The translations under genes and the position numbers were made by a program. A DNA stretch of 64,000 bases, from IMG/VR virus record IMGVR_UViG_2795385619_000008, positions 14,166 to 78,165 of that record; one strand, 5' to 3'. The notes under the pieces were generated by a model that made no database searches, was not told the DNA's origin, and worked only from the letters and a program-made list of their open reading frames with translations. The first letter of the stretch is position 1. Each line of letters opens with the position of its first letter. The DNA comes from a virus. Lineage: Duplodnaviria; Heunggongvirae; Uroviricota; Caudoviricetes. Positions 46,094 through 58,375 of this stretch are shown here, piece after piece.

Positions 46094-46160
46094 GCACTGA
46101 CTTCTCGGCGTTTGGGCCCCGGTTCCTCAGTGGATCGGGGCCCATTTTTATTCGCCAGAG

Positions 46161-46227: not shown

Positions 46228-46298
46228 TCGGATGTGGTCCAGTGGCAGGACAGCGGCTTCCAAACCCGCCAACGGGAGTTCGATTCTCTCCATCCGGG
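46228..46298 (+). tRNA. tRNA-Trp (CCA).
   Basis: Hand-folded cloverleaf. Acceptor TCGGATG/CATCCGG, T-loop TTCGATT, anticodon loop TTCCAAA. Confidence 0.6.
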
Positions 46299-46353
46299 CA
46301 ATGCCTTTGTGTGGCATGACATTTGAAAACTCCATAGAGATAGTAGTTTCAAT

Positions 46354-46699
46354 GGGGCTGACAGGCATTCGATTGCGTGTCAACTTACTGAGAAGCGTGC
46401 CGGGAAGCAACGCCCGCAACAGTGCAACCTTGATAAGCGCAAACGCTCATCAGTCCGACTACGTCCTAGCGGCGTAGTCCGTTGGGGTACAACGGTTCAC
46501 CCGTTCCTTGTACCAATCCACCGTCGCCAATACGGGGAACCCTCTGGCTCACGCCGTCGCACAGAGGCTAAACGTGCTGCGGCAGAACCCTCGTATCAGG
46601 CTGCCCAGCCAAACCGGAGGTAAACGGTATAACAGGGATACGCACGTAGAAGGCAGTGAAGAGAAGCGCAAGACTGCGGTTCAATTCCGCACAGCTCCA
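46354..46699 (+). ncRNA. ssrA: tmRNA (SsrA) encoding the tag ANAHQSDYVLAA.
   Basis: 5-prime GGGGCTG pairs with 3-prime CAGCTCC-A. T-arm TGCGG-TTCAATT-CCGCA. Tag ORF GCA AAC GCT CAT CAG TCC GAC TAC GTC CTA GCG GCG TAG at 46439-46477. Confidence 0.8.
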
Positions 46700-46985
46700 C
46701 GAGAGGGAGGCCACCGGTTCGATCCTGGTCAGCTGGGGAGCGCCCTGGCTGTAGCTCAGTGGCAGAGCGCCCTCGTTAAACGACGCGTGGCCCCGGCTCG
46801 CATAACCAGAACCAAGTACGAGTAGCGCTCGGAACGGAGCGGTTCTTACGGGGAATGTGGAGAGACATCTCCGCGCGGCCATCGGGATGCCGATGGTCAT
46901 ATGGATGACAGGGTAATCCCGCAGTAGGTTCCGATAAAAAGGATCCGACCTGAGGTGCCGTACCTGGGCCGTGTCGTCCATTAAT

Positions 46986-47056
46986 CAGGCTGTAGTGAAA
47001 CGGGATCATGCCGGTTTTGGGTACCGGTGGTGGAGGTTCAATTCCTCCCAGCTTGA
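46986..47056 (+). tRNA. tRNA-Pro (TGG).
   Basis: Hand fold. Anticodon loop TTTGGGT. Confidence 0.6.
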
Positions 47057-47168
47057 CGAGAAGAGTTGTCGGTATATCTCCACGCGCAGGGAACCGTCCG
47101 TCTGATCGCGAACGATAGACGAAAATTCGCGCGCTACGCCCCCCTAGCGTCAACATGGTGGGCACCAT

Positions 47169-47241
47169 TGGCCTGTAGCTCAATTGGTAGAGCAGCGAGC
47201 TGTTAACTCGCGAGGTGTAGGTTCGACTCCTGCCAAGCCAG
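47169..47241 (+). tRNA. tRNA-Asn (GTT).
   Basis: TAGCTCAATTGGTAGAGC D-arm. Loop CTGTTAA. Confidence 0.65.
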
Positions 47242-47351
47242 CGTTGGAACGTGGTGCAAGCGTAGAGCAGCCAAGCGCGACGGCGAGTGGTGAGCACATC
47301 GGCAGTCGACGGTCGAAGATGCCAGGGAAAAGCTGTTCGTTCCTAACCAAT

Positions 47352-47428
47352 CTCGTCGCGAATAGGCGATCAACGCAGACTGTAAATCTGTTCCTTCGGG
47401 TGTGCAGGTTCGACTCCTGACGGCGAGA
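47352..47428 (+). tRNA. tRNA-Tyr (GTA).
   Basis: Loop CTGTAAA, long variable arm. Confidence 0.55.
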
Positions 47429-47507
47429 CAATGAGACTGGTGTGGAACGAACTGAAGGCTTGCGGCAAGCAGAAACGTTCCCCCGCCCGCAAGGCCAGTC
47501 TCAGCCT

Positions 47508-47580
47508 TGATGATTGGTGTAACCGGCAGCACACGTGGCTCTGAACCACGTAGGTCTTGGTTCGAATCCAGGGTCATCAG
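47508..47580 (+). tRNA. tRNA-Gln (CTG).
   Basis: Loop CTCTGAA. Confidence 0.55.
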
Positions 47581-47662
47581 CTTTTGGGTCAACCGGTAGG
47601 TACCTGCCATGAGTTGACTGTCCGGTGGCTCGCATGCCCTCCGTCACAGAAGCATGCCGCAT

Positions 47663-47747
47663 GGAAGGCTCCGCTGAATGGTCGGCAACCGGCGTCGAAT
47701 ACCGGGGCAGGCAGTGCGTCCTGGGGGTTCGAGTCCTCAGCTTTCCG
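47663..47747 (+). tRNA. tRNA-Ser (CGA).
   Basis: Long variable arm. Loop GTCGAAT. Confidence 0.45.
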
Positions 47748-47829
47748 CTCCTAAAGTCTTCCACCTGCCTGAATGGTGGCTAATCAGGTGTGCTCCAAGA
47801 TCGCGTGGACACGGCAACAGGTGGACCAA

Positions 47830-47913
47830 GGAGAGCGCAACTAGTTAGGTGACTAGGCCCGGTTGCTAACCGGATCGCTGCTCTGCAGTAGGTTTCGAAT
47901 ACCTGCCTCTCCA
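47830..47913 (+). tRNA. tRNA-Ser (GCT).
   Basis: Loop TTGCTAA, long variable arm. Confidence 0.55.
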
Positions 47914-48363
47914 CGCACCCACACGAACTCTGTTGTGGGAGATATAGTTAAGACATTCGGGGCATGGCCCATAAGCCACCGCAAGGTGGTGAAAGGTGGG
48001 GTGACAACCCACCACCCGCAAGGGCAATCCATGCAATCCAATCCTTGAGCAGTCAGTGATGGCTGCCAGGTCGTGAGTCTGCCCGTGACCGACGCCGAAT
48101 GTGGTGAGGTCAGCAGCCCGTATCGTGCGGGTGCTCCGTGGGAGTAATGCAGGGGACAGGACAAGCGGCCTGTGGAACGGAAGGAACTGAGTCCGAGCCT
48201 CGCAAGCAAGGGCGTGTTCCATGATCGATCTCGCGTCGGGCGACGGCTCGCAATGCGGTTGAGAGAGAGTGTAATTAGCCCCGCCAGGCGAAAGCACGAG
48301 AGGCGTGAAGCATTCTGTGCCACAAAAGGGTTCGGAACTTCATGGGGAAGCACGTCTTTGGTC

Positions 48364-48436
48364 AAACATCTAGCTCATTTGGTAGAGCATCTGTCGCATA
48401 AACAGTTGGTAGCCGGTTCAATTCCGGCGATGTATA
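48364..48436 (+). tRNA. tRNA-Met (CAT).
   Basis: TAGCTCATTTGGTAGAGC. Loop CGCATAA. Confidence 0.55.
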
Positions 48437-48729
48437 CAAGCAAAAGTCCTTCCCCTGCCGAGGAGCAAAAGCGCCTTAATCCCAGACCTTCGGGAATCTG
48501 GGCCGCACAATAGTCCCGCAAGGTGAGTGCGGTTTGTAGGCAAGTACTGCAGCAGTGAGACGGCCATCTCATCGCGAAGGGAAAGCCGCAGAGTAGCTTT
48601 CGGCATGACGAGTGGTTCACGGTAACGGACCAGGCGTGAGAACTAGGTCAGGGATGGCCTGGAGAAGCAGCGAATCAATAATGCTGCGAAAGGTTCTCGA
48701 TAGCGGGTGTACTCTCAGCCTCTAACAAT

Positions 48730-48803
48730 CGACTCTTAGCTCAGTTAGGTAAGAGCGACCGGTTGAAGCCCGGTGCGCCCCCGTTCGATTCGGGGAGAGT
48801 CGG
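48730..48803 (+). tRNA. tRNA-Phe (GAA).
   Basis: Perfect acceptor CGACTCT/AGAGTCG. Loop TTGAAGC. Confidence 0.65.
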
Positions 48804-48925
48804 CGTGTAAGGGAAACCAGGTTCCACAGCTACTGGTGAAAAGCTGGGCACTCCACGTAAAAGGTCGCGTTGACTCGCGCGGATACGGTAGGCGATGAAC
48901 TGTCCTACCGGAATGAGTCACTCAT

Positions 48926-49000
48926 AGCGGGTTAGAGAAGTTCGGCCATCTCGCGAGCCTCATAAGCTTGAGACCACCGGTTCAAATCCGGTACCCGCCA
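48926..49000 (+). tRNA. tRNA with anticodon CAT (Met, or Ile-lysidine). The 1:72 pair is mismatched.
   Basis: Loop CTCATAA. D-stem GAGA/TCTC. Confidence 0.55.
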
Positions 49001-49064
49001 CAGGGTCCGCTCGCCAGCAAGTCTGGTCCTGAAACCCACGGAGACGGTTAAAGAGTCGGGCAAT

Positions 49065-49139
49065 CCCGTTGTTGGGCAATGGAGCGCCCACCGCCCTACG
49101 AAGGCGCAACGCATGCAGGTTCGAATCCTGTCAACGGGT
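49065..49139 (+). tRNA. tRNA-Arg (ACG).
   Basis: Acceptor CCCGTTG/CAACGGG. Loop CTACGAA. Confidence 0.6.
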
Positions 49140-49203
49140 CTGAGCGCTGTCGGTACAAAGCCCGAACGAACAGAGATGCCATGCTGCTCTGGCCAGCGCC
49201 ATA

Positions 49204-49274
49204 CCTTGTGTAGCTCAATGGCAGAGCTCCTCGCTGTGACCGAGGTTATCGCGGTTCAACTCCGCGCATAGGGA
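49204..49274 (+). tRNA. tRNA-His (GTG).
   Basis: Loop CTGTGAC. Confidence 0.55.
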
Positions 49275-49297
49275 CGTACAGACACTGAAAGGCCAAG

Positions 49298-49462
49298 ATG
49301 ACTGACAAGCTGCGCACGGGTATCGCCCATATCGACATCGTCAAGGCGGTGAACGATCTGATCGATCGCATGGATGCTCTTGAGGGCTTCCATTACGCGG
49401 TGGATGAGAAGCCGGTGGCCAAGAAGGCTCCCGCAAAGAAGGTAGCCCCACCTGCAGAGTAG
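49298..49462 (+). CDS. Small basic protein (54 aa) embedded in the tRNA array.
   Basis: ATG preceded by GAAAGG. MTDKLRTGIAHIDIVKAV...KKAPAKKVAPPAE. Confidence 0.35.
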   Translation: MTDKLRTGIAHIDIVKAVNDLIDRMDALEGFHYAVDEKPVAKKAPAKKVAPPAE

Positions 49463-49471
49463 GTGGCATAA

Positions 49472-49543
49472 GGCGAAGTGAGTGAGTGGCTAGCTGGCAG
49501 GCTGCAACCCTGACCCACACCGGTTCGAATCCGGTCTTCGTCT
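49472..49543 (+). tRNA. tRNA-Cys (GCA).
   Basis: Loop CTGCAAC. Confidence 0.55.
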
Positions 49544-49613
49544 CCGACGCGCTCGATGGGGCTGGTGAGCCATCGTAAAGCCGACGCGTTAGACCATGAA
49601 ATATCGGCACCAT

Positions 49614-49688
49614 GCTCCGGTAGCCCAATTTGGCAGAGGCGACAGGCTTAGACCCTGGAGGTTGTGGGTTCGAATCCCTCTCGGAGTA
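49614..49688 (+). tRNA. tRNA with anticodon TAG (a Leu anticodon) but a short class-I variable arm.
   Basis: Loop CTTAGAC. Variable AGGTT. Discriminator A. Confidence 0.45.
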
Positions 49689-49757
49689 CTCGACGGGTGG
49701 CCCCCGTGAAAGGGCCTGCAGTACTTCGGTAAAGCTGCGTCATCAAACACCGAGCCT

Positions 49758-49832
49758 GGTCGGCTAGGCAAACCTGGCAAAGCCGCCGAGCTCAAACCTC
49801 GGTGTCTGCGAGTTCGATCCTCGCGCCGACTA
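49758..49832 (+). tRNA. tRNA with anticodon CAA (a Leu anticodon) but a short class-I variable arm.
   Basis: Loop CTCAAAC. Variable TGTCT. Discriminator A. Confidence 0.45.
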
Positions 49833-49833
49833 C

Positions 49834-50046
49834 GTGAACAAGTATCGCCTGACAGCTGCGGGGGTCTCATATCTTGCCTGGGGCAAGGAGCTCACCCCGG
49901 AAGGTGCTAGGGCCCTGGTTGAAGCAGAGTGCGGCGTTAGGGCCAGTGACTGTCAGCGATACCACCCAGAGCGCTCACGTGGGCGCGATGGATACAGGAA
50001 GGCGTACCCGCATGTGTGGGCAGCGTTTCCCGCGATCACAAGTTAA
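49834..50046 (+). CDS. Possible small protein gene within the tRNA array.
   Basis: GTG-start ORF of 70 aa between tRNAs. Confidence 0.25.
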   Translation: MNKYRLTAAGVSYLAWGKELTPEGARALVEAECGVRASDCQRYHPERSRGRDGYRKAYPHVWAAFPAITS

Positions 50047-50047
50047 T

Positions 50048-50118
50048 GGGCGTTGGTGAAACGGAATCACCCTAGACTTTTAATCTATGAGTTGAGGGTT
50101 CAAATCCCTTGCGCCCTA
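50048..50118 (+). tRNA. tRNA-Lys (TTT), imperfect acceptor.
   Basis: Loop CTTTTAA. Confidence 0.45.
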
Positions 50119-50119
50119 C

Positions 50120-50191
50120 GGGAGTATAGTTAAGCGGTTATAACTCTTGGCTCTTACCCATGAATCCCAGGTTCGATCCCTGGTGCTCCCA
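50120..50191 (+). tRNA. tRNA-Lys (CTT).
   Basis: Loop CTCTTAC. D-stem GTTA/TAAC. Confidence 0.55.
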
Positions 50192-50192
50192 C

Positions 50193-50264
50193 TAGCTCGT
50201 CGTCCAATGGTTAGGACACCGCTCTGATAAGGCGGAAACCAGTGTTCAACTCACTGCGGGCTTA
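50193..50264 (+). tRNA. tRNA-Ile (GAT).
   Basis: Loop CTGATAA. Confidence 0.5.
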
Positions 50265-50271
50265 CCAACTT

Positions 50272-50342
50272 ACGACTGTAACTCGGACAGACCAACGGCC
50301 TCCTAAGCCGCGTGGAAGCAGGTTCAACTCCTGTCGGTCGTG
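50272..50342 (+). tRNA. tRNA-Arg (CCT).
   Basis: Loop CTCCTAA. Confidence 0.5.
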
Positions 50343-50390
50343 CGCCAGTATGCATTTCGTACCCCTCGGGCCTACGTTCTGCATACTCAT

Positions 50391-50464
50391 GCGAGTGTGA
50401 TGTTTAACGGTTAGCATCTCTGTCTTCCAAACAGATCGTGCCAGTTCGAATCTGGTCACTCGTT
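50391..50464 (+). tRNA. tRNA-Gly (TCC).
   Basis: Loop CTTCCAA. Confidence 0.55.
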
Positions 50465-50590
50465 CGACGTCCTGGGATGGACGACCCTACGGTGGAGACT
50501 TCGGTTGTCGCCGGAAGCTTGTGCGCGGATAGAGCATCCGCCAGGGACCTCTCGCTGCAGCATTGGCACCCTCAACCAAAAGCTCGATAT

Positions 50591-50658
50591 GCCTGGTTAG
50601 TCTGGGACGAAAGCTGGCTTACATCCAGCCAAGCGGTGTTCGATTCACCGACTGGGTA
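50591..50658 (+). tRNA. tRNA-Val (TAC), short D-arm.
   Basis: Loop CTTACAT. Confidence 0.45.
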
Positions 50659-50663
50659 CGCAG

Positions 50664-50737
50664 GCCTCATTAGCTCATCCGGCTAGAGCACTTCCTTAGT
50701 AACGAAGAGGCGCGGGGTTCGAGACCTCGATGAGGCC
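50664..50737 (+). tRNA. tRNA-Thr (AGT).
   Basis: Perfect acceptor GCCTCAT/ATGAGGC. Loop TTAGTAA. Confidence 0.55.
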
Positions 50738-50976
50738 CGACGTTCAGTCTTTCTGCATGTTCAGCTTTGTTGAACAGCAGGGGGATTGAACACTTGGGGG
50801 CGCATGTTCCAAGGTGGCGACCGATCCTTGCAAGATTGGTGTGGTCGCGTTCAATTCGCACCGTCTCCACGGGAGTTTTGGCCAAGCAGCTCCAGGGTTT
50901 GATTCCCAGAAAGTTGGCTCAGGTTGTTCGTACCTGCCCCAGTGGCCTCGAAAACCGCTGGGGGTAAACGTCCTAA

Positions 50977-51049
50977 GCACGTGTAGCTCAATCGGGAGAG
51001 CGCCACCCTGTCAAGGTGGAGGCAGCGGGATCAAAACCCGCCACGGGCG
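50977..51049 (+). tRNA. tRNA-Asp (GTC) with a non-canonical T-loop ATCAAAA.
   Basis: Loop CTGTCAA. Confidence 0.55.
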
Positions 51050-51050
51050 C

Positions 51051-51389
51051 GTGAGTAGAGAACTAGTGCTGTCAGTGACCCTGAAGGATTGTCGTGTAGA
51101 CACATTCCGATCAGGTGGCAAGGGTGGCCAGAACCAGAACAAGCGCGAGACGGGTGTGCGGATTACGCACGAGCCATCTGGTGCGATTGGTGAGTCGCGC
51201 GAGGAGCGTAGTCAGCTTCAGAACAAGCAGGCTGCGTTTCGTCGAATGGCGGGCTCACCGAAGTTCCAGCTCTGGGTGAAGCGTCAAGTCGGTCGTGATG
51301 ACCTGCAGAAGGCCCAGGTGGAGCGCGATATGTGGCCGGTGAACCTCAAGACCGAGGTTCGCGAGTCCGGCAAATGGGTTGAGCAGTAA
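51051..51389 (+). CDS. GGQ-motif peptidyl-tRNA hydrolase domain protein (stand-alone class-I release-factor catalytic domain, ArfB/PrfH-like).
   Basis: DCRVDTFRSGGKGGQNQNKRETGVRITHEPSGAIGESREERSQLQNKQ matches release-factor domain 3. GTG start 2 nt after tRNA-Asp. Confidence 0.65.
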   Translation: MSRELVLSVTLKDCRVDTFRSGGKGGQNQNKRETGVRITHEPSGAIGESREERSQLQNKQAAFRRMAGSPKFQLWVKRQVGRDDLQKAQVERDMWPVNLKTEVRESGKWVEQ

Positions 51390-51430
51390 CCCGTTCGATG
51401 TTCGGTATTGACCGCACAGCGAACACTCAA

Positions 51431-51501
51431 GGTCCATTGGTGTAGTGAGAGCACACCACCCTCTCAAGGTGTTGGTGCGGGTTTGATTCCCGCATGGACT
51501 A
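51431..51501 (+). tRNA. tRNA-Glu (CTC).
   Basis: Loop CTCTCAA. T-loop TTTGATT. Confidence 0.55.
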
Positions 51502-51505
51502 CTCG

Positions 51506-51548
51506 GAAGGCCCTCAGCGCAAGCTGGGGGCCTTTTTCGTACCCACAT
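51506..51548 (+). terminator. Rho-independent terminator closing the RNA island.
   Basis: Hairpin CCCTCAGC-GCAA-GCTGGGGG followed by CCTTTTTCGT. Confidence 0.55.
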
Positions 51549-51552
51549 GAAC
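51541..51552 (-). promoter_or_regulatory. Motif copy ACCCACATGAAC. Its ATG opens an 11-codon leader (MNPKALNTIGT) whose TGA overlaps the ATG at 51579.
   Basis: Exact 12-mer. Confidence 0.45.
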
Positions 51553-51578
51553 CCCAAAGCTCTCAATACCATTGGTAC

Positions 51579-51692
51579 ATGAAGGAATTCAGGAAGCACC
51601 TCTGCATCGCGATCTTCGCTCTCACTGTCATTGACGCCGTGCTGTCGGTGCTCGAGCTGATTGATGCCATCAAGCAGGGACGTGACGCATGA
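51579..51692 (+). CDS. Small membrane protein of 37 aa.
   Basis: Hydrophobic ORF. Confidence 0.3.
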   Translation: MKEFRKHLCIAIFALTVIDAVLSVLELIDAIKQGRDA

Positions 51693-51988
51693 GCGCCAAT
51701 CCCTATGACTTCGAGAAGATTCCGACCGTCACGTCAGAGATGATCCGATTCGCACGGGACATCATGTGGCGTGGTGTTTCGTCTGGCCCATCTAGTCCCG
51801 GTACGAGCCTGATCAATGAGGTCGTGCTCTGGCTCGAAGAGCGTGCTGCGAGTTACCAGGCAGTTGAAGAGCAGGAAGCTGTCGAGAGGGCCTTCATCGA
51901 CGCCGTGGAAGAAGAGGTCGGACAGGGCTGGACGTATCCAGGCGCGATCCGGAAGGTTCTTTCTACCCACAAACTGGAGAAGTTGTGA
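51689..51988 (+). CDS. Hypothetical protein.
   Basis: ATGA overlap. Confidence 0.4.
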   Translation: MSANPYDFEKIPTVTSEMIRFARDIMWRGVSSGPSSPGTSLINEVVLWLEERAASYQAVEEQEAVERAFIDAVEEEVGQGWTYPGAIRKVLSTHKLEKL

Positions 51989-52082
51989 AGCGCCTGGACG
52001 ATTGGGCCTGGTACGTGTCACTCGCCATGGGTGGGTTCGTGATCATCCTGGTCCTGCTCTTCCCGGTTCTGATGGAGCTGAG

Positions 52083-52619
52083 GTGGGGGCATTGAGCGAG
52101 GCTGACCGCGTGAGTCGCCGTGTGCTTGTCACTGGTAGCCGCGACTGGCCGGACCCGAAGCCGGTTATCTACGCCCTCAACAGCCAGTGGCTCAAGGCGC
52201 ACAAGAAGGGCGAGAAGCTCGTTGTTGTGCAAGGGGAGTGTCCCAAGGGTGCTGATCTCTTCGCTGCCGAGTGGGCCCAGTTCCGCGAGGATCGCGGTTG
52301 CCGCGTCAAGAATGAGTCGCATCCCGCAGATTGGGATCGCGACTGTGACTACCACTGCACCCATCCACCTCGGTGGAAGTGGGGTAAGCCGTACTGTCCG
52401 CTCGCTGGACATCTACGCAACCAGGCGATGGTGGACCTTGGCGCTGACATCTGCATTGCATTCCCACTGAAGGACTCTCGGGGTACTTGGGACTGCATGA
52501 AGCGCGCTAAGAAGGCTGGAATCTCCGTCATCAACTTCGGGTACGACGGGCCCCTGTGCGCTCCCTGGATCGACTATCACATTGATCCACATACAGGTCC
52601 GTGTGCACGTGCCCGCTGA
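52083..52619 (+). CDS. Rossmann-fold SLOG/DUF2493-like (DprA/Smf-related) protein with a C-terminal Cys/His cluster.
   Basis: RVLVTGSRDW...VVVQGECPKGADLFAAEWA. GTG start. Confidence 0.45.
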   Translation: MGALSEADRVSRRVLVTGSRDWPDPKPVIYALNSQWLKAHKKGEKLVVVQGECPKGADLFAAEWAQFREDRGCRVKNESHPADWDRDCDYHCTHPPRWKWGKPYCPLAGHLRNQAMVDLGADICIAFPLKDSRGTWDCMKRAKKAGISVINFGYDGPLCAPWIDYHIDPHTGPCARAR

Positions 52620-52738
52620 TCCGTTCTGGTTTGAGAAGTACCCCGCAATTCCCGGCAAGGGTTACCGCGACTCGGCATGCGACTACGACCCAGTGACTGT
52701 CTATGACGGAGCTCAGATCATGGGAGAGGTGAACAGCG

Positions 52739-53092
52739 ATGAGTGAACTGAAGCAAATGATTGTCATGCGTAAGGATCTCGGCATGCGTGCCGGGAAGAT
52801 GGTTTCACAAGGTGCTCACGCCTCTCTGGGTGCCGTTCTCGAGTACCGCGATGACCCACGGGTGGTTGAGTGGCTCGCCGGTTCGTTCACGAAGGTCTGT
52901 GTGCGGGTGGAGAGCGAAGACGCACTGATTGACCTCTGGGGCAAGGCAATTAAAGCCAACCTCCCAAACGCGCTGATTACGGATAACGGTAAGACCGAAT
53001 TCCATGGCATCTTGACCACTACGTGCTGCGCTATCGGCCCCGCAACGGCTGAAGAGCTTGCACCGATCACGGGGGCGTTGAAGCTTCTATGA
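52739..53092 (+). CDS. pth2: Peptidyl-tRNA hydrolase, Pth2 family.
   Basis: MIVMRKDLGMRAGKMVSQGAHAS signature, 117 aa. Confidence 0.7.
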   Translation: MSELKQMIVMRKDLGMRAGKMVSQGAHASLGAVLEYRDDPRVVEWLAGSFTKVCVRVESEDALIDLWGKAIKANLPNALITDNGKTEFHGILTTTCCAIGPATAEELAPITGALKLL

Positions 53093-56697: not shown

Positions 56698-58080
56698 CTA
56701 GTTGGACTGACGCCAGTGGACGGTGACGTTGTGTCCAGCGGAGAGCTTGTGCACGCCCTTACCCTTAGTGCCTAGCGAGTTGACTTCGAGCTTCTCGATA
56801 ACCTGCTGTATCACACTGCGCTGCCGGTCAATTGGGAGGCTAGACCATGTCTCCCTGAGATTTGATGCGCCAACGAGACCATCTAATACGTTGGCCTCCA
56901 ACGCCTTCTGGATATTATCGTTAGCCATCTCCAGCTTCTGCTGAAGACTATCAGTTGCGATCTTGACCTGCGCAGCGGTGAGATTACCCTCTGCGTAGTC
57001 GACGGCCAGCTGGTCGATGCGGGCCCTGAGCGCGTTGGCTTCCTCATTGAGTGCGGGTGTGTTCGATGTGGTGACCTGAGTCCACGTGGCCTGGCTCTCG
57101 AGATGACGTAGGACAAGCTCCTCTATCCATCCGTCCAGTGCTTCCTGGCGACGCTGAACTCCTGAGCAGCCGAACGCACCACCCTTGCAGCGATACACGC
57201 CGTGCCCACCATCCGTGGCCGCAGTGAGTGGGCCCCCGCATTTCCCGCAGCGGGCGATCACTGACAGCAGGTGCTTAGGGTCGCGGCGACCCGTGTAGCT
57301 GGATCTTGACGGGTTGGTAATGATCGCATGGACAGACCGCCAGGTGTTCTCGTCGACAATGGCAGGCCAATTCCCAAACCCCACGATCTCGCCATGTAGT
57401 GCCCGCAGACCCGCATTGCGCGGGTTCTTAATGAGCCTGGAGAGGTTGGAGGTATCCCACCTACTTCCGCGCTTAGTGGTGACACCCTGCTTGTTCCACT
57501 GCTGGGCAATGCCGTAGAGGGTGCGCCCGGAGAGAATGTCGCGGTATGCATCACGGATGAGGTCAGCCTCTTCCGGCACGAGTGCAGGGTTCTCATGGTC
57601 GCCCGAGTAGCCAAACTGTGGTGGCCCCCAGCCCTTACCGGACTGCGCCAGCTGGAGGTGGGCTCGCTTCTGTCTTACTGACTTGCGTTCGATCTCAGCT
57701 CGTGCCACAGCGCCCTTGATTCGGGCGACCAACCGGCCTTGGTCGGTTCCCAAATCGGTATCGCCACCAACGGTCGCTAGCGCTATGCCCATCTTGTCGG
57801 CCAGTGTGATGAAGTCTTCGAGCTCACGCGGCTGCCGGTGGAGTCTGTCGAGATCCCACGTCACCACGGCGTCGATCTGGCCGTCACGAATGTCTTGCAG
57901 CATCGCCTGGTACTGGGGGCGCACGCCTTTGGTGGCCGACGTGTCGTTGTCGACGTACTTGACGATGTCATTCCAGCCCTTGCGTTCACACAGGGCCGCA
58001 CAGTCCTCTTCCTGGCGTGCAACGGCTAGTCCTTCGCCAGTCCGGTCGAGCGATTGGCGCAGATACATCCCCGTCCTCAT
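56698..58080 (-). CDS. int: Large serine recombinase (integrase). The preferred start is the Met at 58080.
   Basis: N-terminal catalytic domain MYLRQSLDRTGEG. Zn-ribbon and coiled-coil C-terminus. 461 aa. Confidence 0.8.
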   Translation of the reverse strand: MRTGMYLRQSLDRTGEGLAVARQEEDCAALCERKGWNDIVKYVDNDTSATKGVRPQYQAMLQDIRDGQIDAVVTWDLDRLHRQPRELEDFITLADKMGIALATVGGDTDLGTDQGRLVARIKGAVARAEIERKSVRQKRAHLQLAQSGKGWGPPQFGYSGDHENPALVPEEADLIRDAYRDILSGRTLYGIAQQWNKQGVTTKRGSRWDTSNLSRLIKNPRNAGLRALHGEIVGFGNWPAIVDENTWRSVHAIITNPSRSSYTGRRDPKHLLSVIARCGKCGGPLTAATDGGHGVYRCKGGAFGCSGVQRRQEALDGWIEELVLRHLESQATWTQVTTSNTPALNEEANALRARIDQLAVDYAEGNLTAAQVKIATDSLQQKLEMANDNIQKALEANVLDGLVGASNLRETWSSLPIDRQRSVIQQVIEKLEVNSLGTKGKGVHKLSAGHNVTVHWRQSN

Positions 58081-58110
58081 GCCGCCTATTGTAGCCGATT
58101 GCGTTGGACG

Positions 58111-58152
58111 TAAAACGATTAGGTTGGCTAACGATCCGGGTAAAAGAAAAGG
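58111..58152 (-). terminator. Rho-independent terminator on the minus strand upstream of int.
   Basis: Minus-strand GGTCAGCCC-TTCG-GGGTTGGCC followed by TTTTCTTTT. Confidence 0.45.
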
Positions 58153-58180
58153 GCCAACCCCGAAGGGCTGACCCGTTTCT

Positions 58181-58375
58181 CTATCGCCTCCTGAACTTCG
58201 CCTTGTCAATGGTGCACAGGTGGTACTCACCGCACCGGCATGGGTAGGGCTCCACCGGTATGTACCGCCTATTGGAGTGTGGCGCCTTGCATCGCTTGCG
58301 GATGTCCTTAACGGCTTTCAGTGCCACACCCTTGTTGGCGTACACCTCCTTGTAAGGGGTAGGGCAGCAGTTCAC
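58181..58375 (-). CDS. Small Cys-rich protein.
   Basis: ORF. Confidence 0.35.
   Translation of the reverse strand: MNCCPTPYKEVYANKGVALKAVKDIRKRCKAPHSNRRYIPVEPYPCRCGEYHLCTIDKAKFRRR

Follow-up and report, generated by a model that had tools for sequence, protein, structure and literature searches.

Background

GGQ domains hydrolyse peptidyl-tRNA at the peptidyl-transferase centre, and their stand-alone forms are rescue factors (PMC6514570, PMC8012679, PMC12829566). ArfB is targeted through a linker and a strongly basic C-terminal helix that occupies the empty mRNA channel (PMC6514570, PMC12829566), and PrfH, a protein of ca. 200-230 aa, possesses an N-terminal ribosome-recognition domain that reads cleaved 16S rRNA (PMC9304027, PMC12829566), its pairing with RtcB being an established precedent (PMC9304027, PMC6514570). 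Phages are nowhere mentioned in the principal review on the evolution of the hydrolase domains of release factors (PMC6514570). A phage family of GGQ/RF-1 proteins has already been mentioned in print, by Dedrick et al. (PMC8092301) and by Morgado and Vicente in 2018, who listed mycobacterial tRNA arrays with RF-1, Pth and tmRNA genes (PMC5966550). Trans-translation is essential in Mycobacterium tuberculosis (PMC8012679).

Here we describe a member of that family encoded in a stretch of 64,000 nt of phage DNA (the window), the right half of which shows ca. 85% nucleotide identity to the Mycobacterium abscessus prophages prophiGD54-2, prophiT49-2 and prophi86-1. These three prophages are ascribed to the Vilmaviridae, Mclasvirinae, and to cluster MabI, which is related to cluster M. 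A preliminary description of the locus, based on the letters and their translation, had recognized a stand-alone GGQ domain lacking codon-recognition domains and had suggested a role in ribosome rescue. Its observation is confirmed by our analysis, and its interpretation is supported in part.

Results and discussion

A GGQ-domain gene under purifying selection

The GGQ-domain gene extends from 51051 to 51389 on the plus strand and is a coding sequence that begins with GTG and comprises 112 codons ahead of its TAA stop; it is backed by its translation, by Pfam and PHROG matches and by codon substitutions. The translation runs from VSRELVLSVTLKDCRVDTFRSGGKGGQNQNKRETGVRITHEPSGAIGESREERSQLQNK to KWVEQ and reads in full VSRELVLSVTLKDCRVDTFRSGGKGGQNQNKRETGVRITHEPSGAIGESREERSQLQNKQAAFRRMAGSPKFQLWVKRQVGRDDLQKAQVERDMWPVNLKTEVRESGKWVEQ. 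The catalytic tripeptide of release factors can be read directly off the sequence as the codons ggt ggc cag at 51123..51131 (+), which make up residues 25-27 of the protein, in the loop that joins strands 1 and 2. The motifs that had been quoted in the preliminary description are all present, and Pfam, AlphaFold2 and Foldseek agree on a stand-alone GGQ domain. Comparison with Pfam PF00472 (RF-1), which had been proposed there as a check, rendered a match over residues 8-67 (51072..51251, +; model positions 6-66 of 116), a part that takes in the GGQ loop, three beta-strands and the first helix. At 66.2 bits (E 3.1e-18) the match exceeds the gathering cut-off of 35, so that the similarity is far above chance.

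That the ORF is conserved as coding, the other point on which the initial proposal had been made to depend, is borne out by comparison with prophiT49-2. The two genes differ at 52 nucleotides, 43 of them at third codon positions, which correspond to 38 synonymous and 7 non-synonymous codon changes, and the comparison with prophi86-1 resembles it. The gene is under strong purifying selection. In an alignment of 30 close relatives the N-terminus M-[ST]-[RK]-E is aligned with codon 1 at 51051, GGQ is found in all 30, and W75 and W109 are likewise invariant. The family N-terminus and the pattern of codon substitutions indicate that the ORF is coding and that its start is the GTG abutting tRNA-Asp. 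A reading frame extended upstream to the GTG at 50814 was discarded, since it would cross tRNA-Asp and since the family N-terminus aligns with codon 1 at 51051.

Predicted fold and C-terminal cap

The AlphaFold2 model of the 112-aa protein has a mean pLDDT of 86. It consists of strands 15-21, 32-40 and 45-49, of which the first two flank the GGQ loop, a helix 55-68 that continues, after a kink at a Ser-Pro, as helix 70-93, and then a loop and a beta-hairpin (102-111). A Foldseek search of the PDB retrieved ribosome-bound RF2, RF1, mtRF1/mtRF1a and PrfH chains with probability 1.00, in alignments of 84-97 columns with an rmsd of ca. 4.5-6.8 Å, a span which indicates that the helix is broadly continuous in the manner of release factors. 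The three-stranded sheet, GGQ loop and long helix of the model can thus be assigned with confidence to the predicted fold of class-I release-factor domain 3.

The C-terminal cap (residues 68-112; 51252..51386, +), formed by the kinked helix continuation 70-93 and the beta-hairpin 102-111, is not basic. The net charge of the last 45 aa is +2 (the family mean is -0.7), and the last 26 residues include 5 basic and 5 acidic ones. Among 94 representatives with no more than 50% identity, the conserved positions of the cap are F72, W75, M94, N98, E102, G107 and W109, which suggests that they may form a small hydrophobic cap. With a profile of close relatives, the stretch DMWPVNLKTEV is aligned with DIGWGSQIRSYV of RF2, placing W95 on W319, and the alignment is collinear to RF2 residue 331. 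A retained RF2 switch-loop Trp was nonetheless rejected as an explanation, because W95 is not conserved in the 94 diverse representatives, outside the mycobacteriophage clade, and the switch-loop region of RF2 was not detected with a profile restricted to the C-terminal part. Given these two results, a location of the cap near the decoding centre would be a geometric guess.

Descent from class-I release factors

In profile comparisons with solved structures, the highest scores corresponded to mtRF1 (66 bits), RF1 (60) and RF2 (57), followed by PrfH (55), C12orf65 (32) and ArfB (23), a ranking which indicates that the domain is of the RF1/RF2 type and not of the ArfB/ICT1 type. The only stretch of RF2 matched confidently comprised residues ca. 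232-294. In BLAST alignments, two members of 117 aa are collinear with RF2 through residues 327-332 ('LIRSEV' on 'QIRSYV'), and the Pfam match of one family member reaches position 112 of 116 in the RF-1 model. Moreover, five relatives of 129-151 aa combine the N-terminal signature of the family, M.RE..L.VT.KDC.V.TFR.GG.GGQNQNK, with a C-terminus in which the release-factor sequence RTYN..RV.DHRTG...LDG.LD is still present. These longer relatives, together with the collinear 117-aa members, indicate that, as far as can be judged by sequence, the family is a class-I release factor truncated at both ends, of which the 112-aa form keeps only the first hairpin after the long helix.

The protein was also compared with models of the established subfamilies. 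The prfA/prfB equivalog models gave 61-68 bits, to be compared with cut-offs of 370-423, so the full RF1/RF2 architecture is absent. Membership of ArfB, to which the protein had been likened at first, was rejected: NF006718 scored 24.3 bits against a cut-off of 100 over residues 7-40 only, and the search for a basic tail that had been recommended found none. The likeness to PrfH did not hold either, since TIGR03072 scored 52.6 bits against a cut-off of 166.65 in a match confined to the GGQ domain (model positions 104-162 of 200). Only 7 residues, beginning with M-S-R-E, precede the domain-3 match, so that the N-terminal ribosome-recognition domain of PrfH is absent. The window protein is therefore devoid of every known ribosome-targeting device, be it a basic tail, a ribosome-recognition domain or a codon-recognition domain.

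A known and widespread phage family

The window protein matches PHROG 3122 with E 2.7e-61, its residues 1-112 aligning with profile positions 19-130 of 136. By tblastn the family was found in 257 phage records, 206 of which are Mycobacterium phages; it is already annotated in hundreds of mycobacteriophage genomes, and nearly all of the inspected records carry the annotation. These counts, together with PHROG 3122 and the two reports in print (PMC8092301, PMC5966550), contradict the initial remark that such proteins are rarely noted in phages. Among 5.8 billion clustered proteins, 1411 relatives were retrieved; the 120 best matches have lengths of 97-142 aa and identities of 61-94%, and almost without exception they extend over 94% or more of the query. 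A similar length is shared by at least ca. 90 of the listed representatives of 50%-identity clusters. The full 112 aa are conserved across more than 1400 proteins. Identity amounts to 90-93% with the copies of M. abscessus prophages and to 74-78% with those of cluster C phages. The exact protein sequence was absent from a collection of 15 billion proteins, in which the nearest entry is 92% identical. No extra Pfam domain was found in the longer family members, and no functional study on any of the members came up in a literature search.

In view of the existing annotations and mentions in print the feature is already catalogued, and the window protein adds a new sequence to a phage family that is known and annotated but uncharacterised. 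The gene would not surprise a specialist in mycobacteriophages; it is the absent targeting module and the tRNA-bracketed expression that are noteworthy and worth testing.

In a broad alignment of 95 sequences (the 94 representatives and the window protein), the glutamine of GGQ is kept in 89. The remaining 6 have GGS or GGT instead, among them P0151, otherwise a full-length family member. It is possible therefore that some members of the family are non-catalytic, to judge by this replacement.

Expression layout

The gene is bracketed by two tRNA genes. Upstream lies tRNA-Asp (anticodon GTC), located at 50977..51050 (+) by ARAGORN and at 50977-51049 by Rfam (61.5 bits), which ends at the discriminator base, so that the GTG starts 0-1 nt after the tRNA. 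The preliminary description was right about this adjacency; the spacing of 2 nt that it gave differs trivially. Reading of the junctions showed that the GTG also directly abuts tRNA-Asp in prophiT49-2 and prophi86-1, despite a differing acceptor sequence of the tRNA. Downstream, tRNA-Glu (anticodon CTC; 51431..51502, +; ARAGORN and Rfam) begins 41 nt past the stop codon, and only 6 nt separate stop codon and tRNA-Glu in prophiT49-2 and prophi86-1. With tRNA-Asp and tRNA-Glu bracketing the mRNA there is no space for a leader or a Shine-Dalgarno sequence.

A GC-rich hairpin with arms GGCCCUCAGC and GCUGGGGGCC and loop GCAA, followed by UUUUU, is located after tRNA-Glu at 51509..51537 (+) and is conserved in prophiT49-2 and prophi86-1. 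A simple scan for terminators did not include it; RNA folding supported it, with -27.4 kcal/mol and a z value of -5.0 for 51500-51545, none of 200 shuffled sequences being as stable. It is likely to be the intrinsic terminator of the transcription unit that comprises the tRNAs and the GGQ gene.

In the window a GTG is found at offset 0 after 3 of the 21 tRNA/tmRNA ends, for which the probability of chance occurrence, calculated from the local frequency of GTG, is ca. 0.01. After tRNA-Leu(CAA), an ORF of 70 codons, whose C-terminus relatives conserve, exactly spans the gap to tRNA-Lys. The GTG after tRNA-Phe is directly followed by TAA in the window, and in prophi86-1 it is the start of an ORF of 94 aa. 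The GGQ protein is probably translated from a GUG mRNA, leaderless or nearly so, that would be freed by 3'-end processing of the tRNA, which is consistent with the efficient leaderless translation known in mycobacteria.

Genomic neighbourhood

Twenty tRNAs and a tmRNA form an array at 46228-51502 according to ARAGORN. The phage tmRNA (46354..46702, +; Rfam RF00023, 101.7 bits; ARAGORN tag peptide ANAHQSDYVLAA) is located at its head. A gene for a PTH2-type peptidyl-tRNA hydrolase (52739..53092, +; Pfam PF01981, E 4.4e-30), whose counterpart in relatives is annotated as 'peptidyl tRNA hydrolase', is found 1.35 kb downstream of the GGQ gene, being preceded, after tRNA-Glu, by an ORF of 99 aa and an ORF with a SLOG/YspA domain. 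A serine integrase is encoded at 56698-58230 (-). With 20 tRNAs, tmRNA and PTH2, and with RtcB in three relatives, the local setting has the appearance of a translation-maintenance island.

The order in prophiT49-2, prophi86-1 and prophiGD54-2 is tRNA-Asp, the GGQ gene, tRNA-Glu, 0-2 small ORFs, RtcB and, further on, PTH2. RtcB was not found anywhere in the 64,000-nt window by tblastn with the prophiT49-2 protein. The suggestion that the locus follows an RtcB-PrfH logic thus has limited support by context: the gene order of the three close prophages fits it, and that of the window itself does not. Placement within a tRNA/tmRNA island, which had also been put forward as indicative, holds for the window lineage and not elsewhere. 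In cluster C phages the GGQ gene is located in the replication module, between the genes for DNA polymerase III alpha and UvsX/RecA. In the cluster M phage Nanosmite, whose tRNA-Asp and tRNA-Glu genes adjoin each other, it lies 7 kb past the tRNA array; in the cluster J phage WXIN it is found amid small ORFs, and in metagenomic relatives its neighbours are DnaB/primase or genes without known function. RtcB adjoins it in none of the cluster C, Nanosmite and metagenomic contexts.

RtcB was detected in 221 Mycobacterium phage records, mostly of other clusters, and among the sampled RtcB matches there was no cluster C genome of ca. 155 kb. PTH2 of the type of the window was found in only 12 Mycobacterium records. 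A general co-occurrence of the GGQ gene with RtcB or PTH2 was considered and not found. The association with RtcB and tRNAs is real in the MabI-type prophage lineage and is not general. No conserved neighbour or fused domain was seen across the contexts examined (MabI, cluster C, cluster J, Nanosmite and metagenomic relatives), which fits a single-component factor; the GGQ protein looks like a self-sufficient accessory factor.

Proposed function and alternatives

The role in ribosome rescue that had been suggested in the preliminary description is the most reasonable inference. We consider it somewhat probable, on the basis of sequence, that the protein is a codon-independent, ribosome-dependent peptidyl-tRNA hydrolase that would free stalled translation complexes in lytic growth. 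We infer its catalytic activity, its substrate, its benefit for the phage and its mode of expression as follows. The GGQ protein is a minimal derivative of a class-I release factor, reduced to domain 3 with the GGQ loop, the long helix and a short beta-hairpin cap, that would act as a single component beside the phage tRNAs, tmRNA and PTH2. During lytic growth it may occupy the empty A site of stalled translation complexes, where the GGQ would be set in the peptidyl-transferase centre and the peptidyl-tRNA hydrolysed without codon reading, so that ribosomes and tRNAs would again be available to make phage proteins. Since it has no decoding domain that could keep it closed, the protein would be constitutively 'open', which implies that its selectivity would come solely from competition for the A site and that it would act on ribosomes that have been waiting for too long. 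Such long waiting may follow cleavage or depletion of tRNAs, or damage to the mRNA.

A more far-reaching version is that the protein represents a new mechanistic class of rescue, an open release factor that would release peptides from ribosomes halted on intact mRNA at a sense codon in the A site and that would be expressed from a tRNA-punctuated leaderless GUG mRNA. We put this forward tentatively, as a rather unlikely case. Stalling at sense codons would result from the loss of a tRNA to host anticodon nucleases or toxins, and to our knowledge neither tmRNA nor ArfA nor ArfB can handle such a stall on intact mRNA directly. The transcript would then be punctuated by tRNAs in a manner reminiscent of mitochondria, 3' processing of tRNA-Asp yielding the leaderless GUG mRNA in the MabI-type prophage lineage.

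Other activities can be envisaged for the same domain. The protein might act after subunit splitting, freeing the chain from 50S-peptidyl-tRNA as mtRF-R (C12orf65)/MTRES1 does, and not on the 70S ribosome. It has no element able to sense the 30S mRNA channel or the decoding centre, its similarity to C12orf65 is weak but significant (30-32 bits, with the Foldseek match 7a5h_C, a split mitoribosomal large subunit with mtRF-R), and a PTH2 gene is nearby. This alternative seems to us unlikely, however, because the sequence is nearer to domain 3 of RF1/RF2 than to C12orf65, no conserved S4/MTRES1-like partner gene was found in the contexts examined, and nothing specifically favours 50S over 70S. 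The protein could also be the PrfH-like member of a phage repair pair with RtcB, in which peptide release from ribosomes with nuclease-cut rRNA or tRNA would be followed by re-ligation by RtcB. The RtcB gene downstream of tRNA-Glu in the three close prophages would fit such a pair, as would the precedent of PrfH and RtcB (PMC9304027, PMC6514570). Such a pairing is nevertheless improbable for a protein whose gene occurs without RtcB in the window, and in the replication module in cluster C, a cluster for which no genome of ca. 155 kb appeared among the sampled RtcB matches, RtcB belonging mainly to other Mycobacterium phage clusters; besides, the protein lacks the ribosome-recognition domain with which PrfH reads the damaged A1493 (PMC12829566).

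Lacking any module for codon reading or stall sensing, a GGQ domain could in principle hit any transiently empty A site, so that the protein might instead be a weapon, an unregulated release factor that ends host translation early, either in lytic host shut-off or as an abortive-infection toxin of the prophage. Its occurrence in unrelated genome contexts would suit an accessory 'moron' gene of this kind. The translation of the phage would suffer equally, however, and the gene is part of a predicted early lytic unit and has the same orientation as translation-boosting tRNAs (PMC8092301); the protein matched none of the PADLOC defence-system models, and no conserved antitoxin-like partner is adjacent to its gene, so we do not expect this role either and rate it as improbable as the repair pair. 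Very improbable, finally, is a non-catalytic binder, which would serve as a decoy for the host PrmC methyltransferase or would block the A site or the peptidyl-transferase centre, thereby modulating termination or parking ribosomes. The GGS or GGT of 6 of the 95 aligned sequences, including the otherwise full-length P0151, would be in line with it. Against it stand the GGQ of all 30 close relatives, the glutamine kept in 94% of the broad-family alignment, and the conservation of the catalytic-loop residues GGxGGQNxNK, as expected of an active enzyme.

If the rescue activity proposed above is real, phages with large tRNA sets would also bring their own means of clearing jammed ribosomes, and the protein would be the smallest release-factor derivative known, without any of the targeting devices described so far. 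It would then be relevant to the arms race over tRNA- and rRNA-cleaving defences, and it would matter for translation quality control in mycobacteria given that M. tuberculosis cannot dispense with trans-translation. More than 1400 sequences belong to the family, whose members are short and easily purified, so that the question is directly testable.

Comparison with known systems

The window protein resembles RF1/RF2 in its GGQ motif, in its fold of sheet and helix and in its best matches of both sequence and structure. It differs from them in lacking domain 1, domain 2 with its codon-reading motif (PxT/SPF) and most of domain 4, which leaves 112 aa of the ca. 360 aa of those factors, and, unlike them, it is incapable of reading stop codons. 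With ArfB (YaeJ)/ICT1 it shares the condition of a small, single-component GGQ protein without codon recognition and, in the outcome proposed here, codon-independent hydrolysis of peptidyl-tRNA on stalled ribosomes. Sequence similarity to ArfB is limited to the GGQ loop, however, with 22.7 bits by profile, and the C-terminal 45 aa of the window protein are near neutral and form a helix and a hairpin.

PrfH (RFH), the partner of RtcB2, is likewise a rescue factor derived from RF2 that lacks domain 1. The GGQ domains of both proteins are similar (ca. 53-55 bits), and RtcB adjoins the gene in three close relatives of the prophage, but the recognition domain is absent from the window protein and RtcB from the window. 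The mitochondrial factor mtRF-R (C12orf65), which acts on split large subunits together with its partner protein MTRES1, is another GGQ domain that stands alone, is extended briefly at the C-terminus and takes no part in decoding; the window protein is closer in sequence to RF1/RF2, and no conserved partner gene was seen. The closest resemblance is to the annotated RF-1 family of phages. Its prophage copies differ in that RtcB follows the gene in the three closest relatives and not in the window prophage, whereas the match extends over the full length of the protein, and the gene occupies the slot between tRNA-Asp and tRNA-Glu that it also has in the MabI prophages.

ORFs beginning at tRNA 3' ends

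Besides the GGQ gene (51051-51389, plus strand), which encodes a stand-alone release-factor domain 3 protein, the array contains further ORFs whose GTG start lies exactly at the 3' end of a tRNA. A 70-codon ORF with a GTG start (49834-50046, plus strand) exactly fills the gap between tRNA-Leu(CAA) and tRNA-Lys(TTT), and its C-terminal motif GYRxAYPHVWxxFP is kept in two relatives. After tRNA-Phe there is only a GTG-TAA (48805-48810, plus strand), and in the Mycobacterium abscessus prophage prophi86-1 a 94-aa ORF begins at the GTG that matches it. The placement of these GTG starts at tRNA 3' ends suggests leaderless mRNAs that are punctuated by tRNAs.

The tRNA-Asp located upstream of the GGQ gene (50977-51050, plus strand) differs in sequence, in both the acceptor and the T-arm, from its counterpart at that position in prophi86-1 and the related prophage prophiT49-2, and yet the start of the ORF downstream is identical in all three. 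Inspection by eye indicated an A3/G70 mismatch in the acceptor stem of the window tRNA-Asp. For the majority of tRNAs in the array, the DNA supplies just one nucleotide of the CCA, its first C.

Structured RNAs in the array

A full-length GOLLD RNA (48298-48721, plus strand; Rfam RF02032, model positions 1-416, 191.6 bits versus a gathering score of 150) is located within the tRNA array and encloses a tRNA called as tRNA-Met(CAT) (48364-48437). The GOLLD RNA is kept in prophiT49-2 and prophi86-1 (comparison loci L001 3795-4238 and L002 4018-4461), each with an embedded tRNA, and is conserved in the cluster M phage Nanosmite (L010 1986-2363) as well, but there it lacks the embedded tRNA. None of these three GenBank records carries a GOLLD annotation, and a full-text literature search found no paper discussing GOLLD in mycobacteriophages.

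The array begins with tRNA-Trp, just upstream of which lies a strong terminator-like hairpin (46113-46144, plus strand). A phage tmRNA (46354-46702, plus strand; Rfam, 101.7 bits), with the tag ANAHQSDYVLAA, has a promoter-like site on its 5' side (46316-46344, plus strand). Nanosmite also has a tmRNA (L010 747-1099, approximately 56746-57098 of the record; RF00023, 111.5 bits), flanked by tRNA-Trp and tRNA-Asn and not annotated in its GenBank record, MW578836.1.

Translation-related genes

The RtcB-like RNA ligase gene, which lies after tRNA-Glu in prophiT49-2, prophi86-1 and a further relative, prophiGD54-2, is absent from the window, its position (51540-52740, plus strand) being occupied instead by a small ORF, a 99-aa ORF with no family match (51689-51988, plus strand) and a SLOG/YspA-domain ORF (within 51816-52619, plus strand; Pfam PF10686, E 5e-11). 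An archaeal/eukaryotic-type peptidyl-tRNA hydrolase, PTH2, is encoded at 52739-53092 (plus strand; PF01981, E 4.4e-30), 1.35 kb 3' of the GGQ gene; among Mycobacterium phages just 12 records have a close homologue, and several jumbo phages have one too.

Five metagenomic representative proteins (P0154, P0176, P0218, P0223 and P0267), of 129-151 aa, combine the N-terminal signature of the phage GGQ family with a complete release factor-like C-terminus (RTYN..RV.DHRTG..LDG.LD), and so have the appearance of intermediate forms linking complete release factors to the 112-aa protein.
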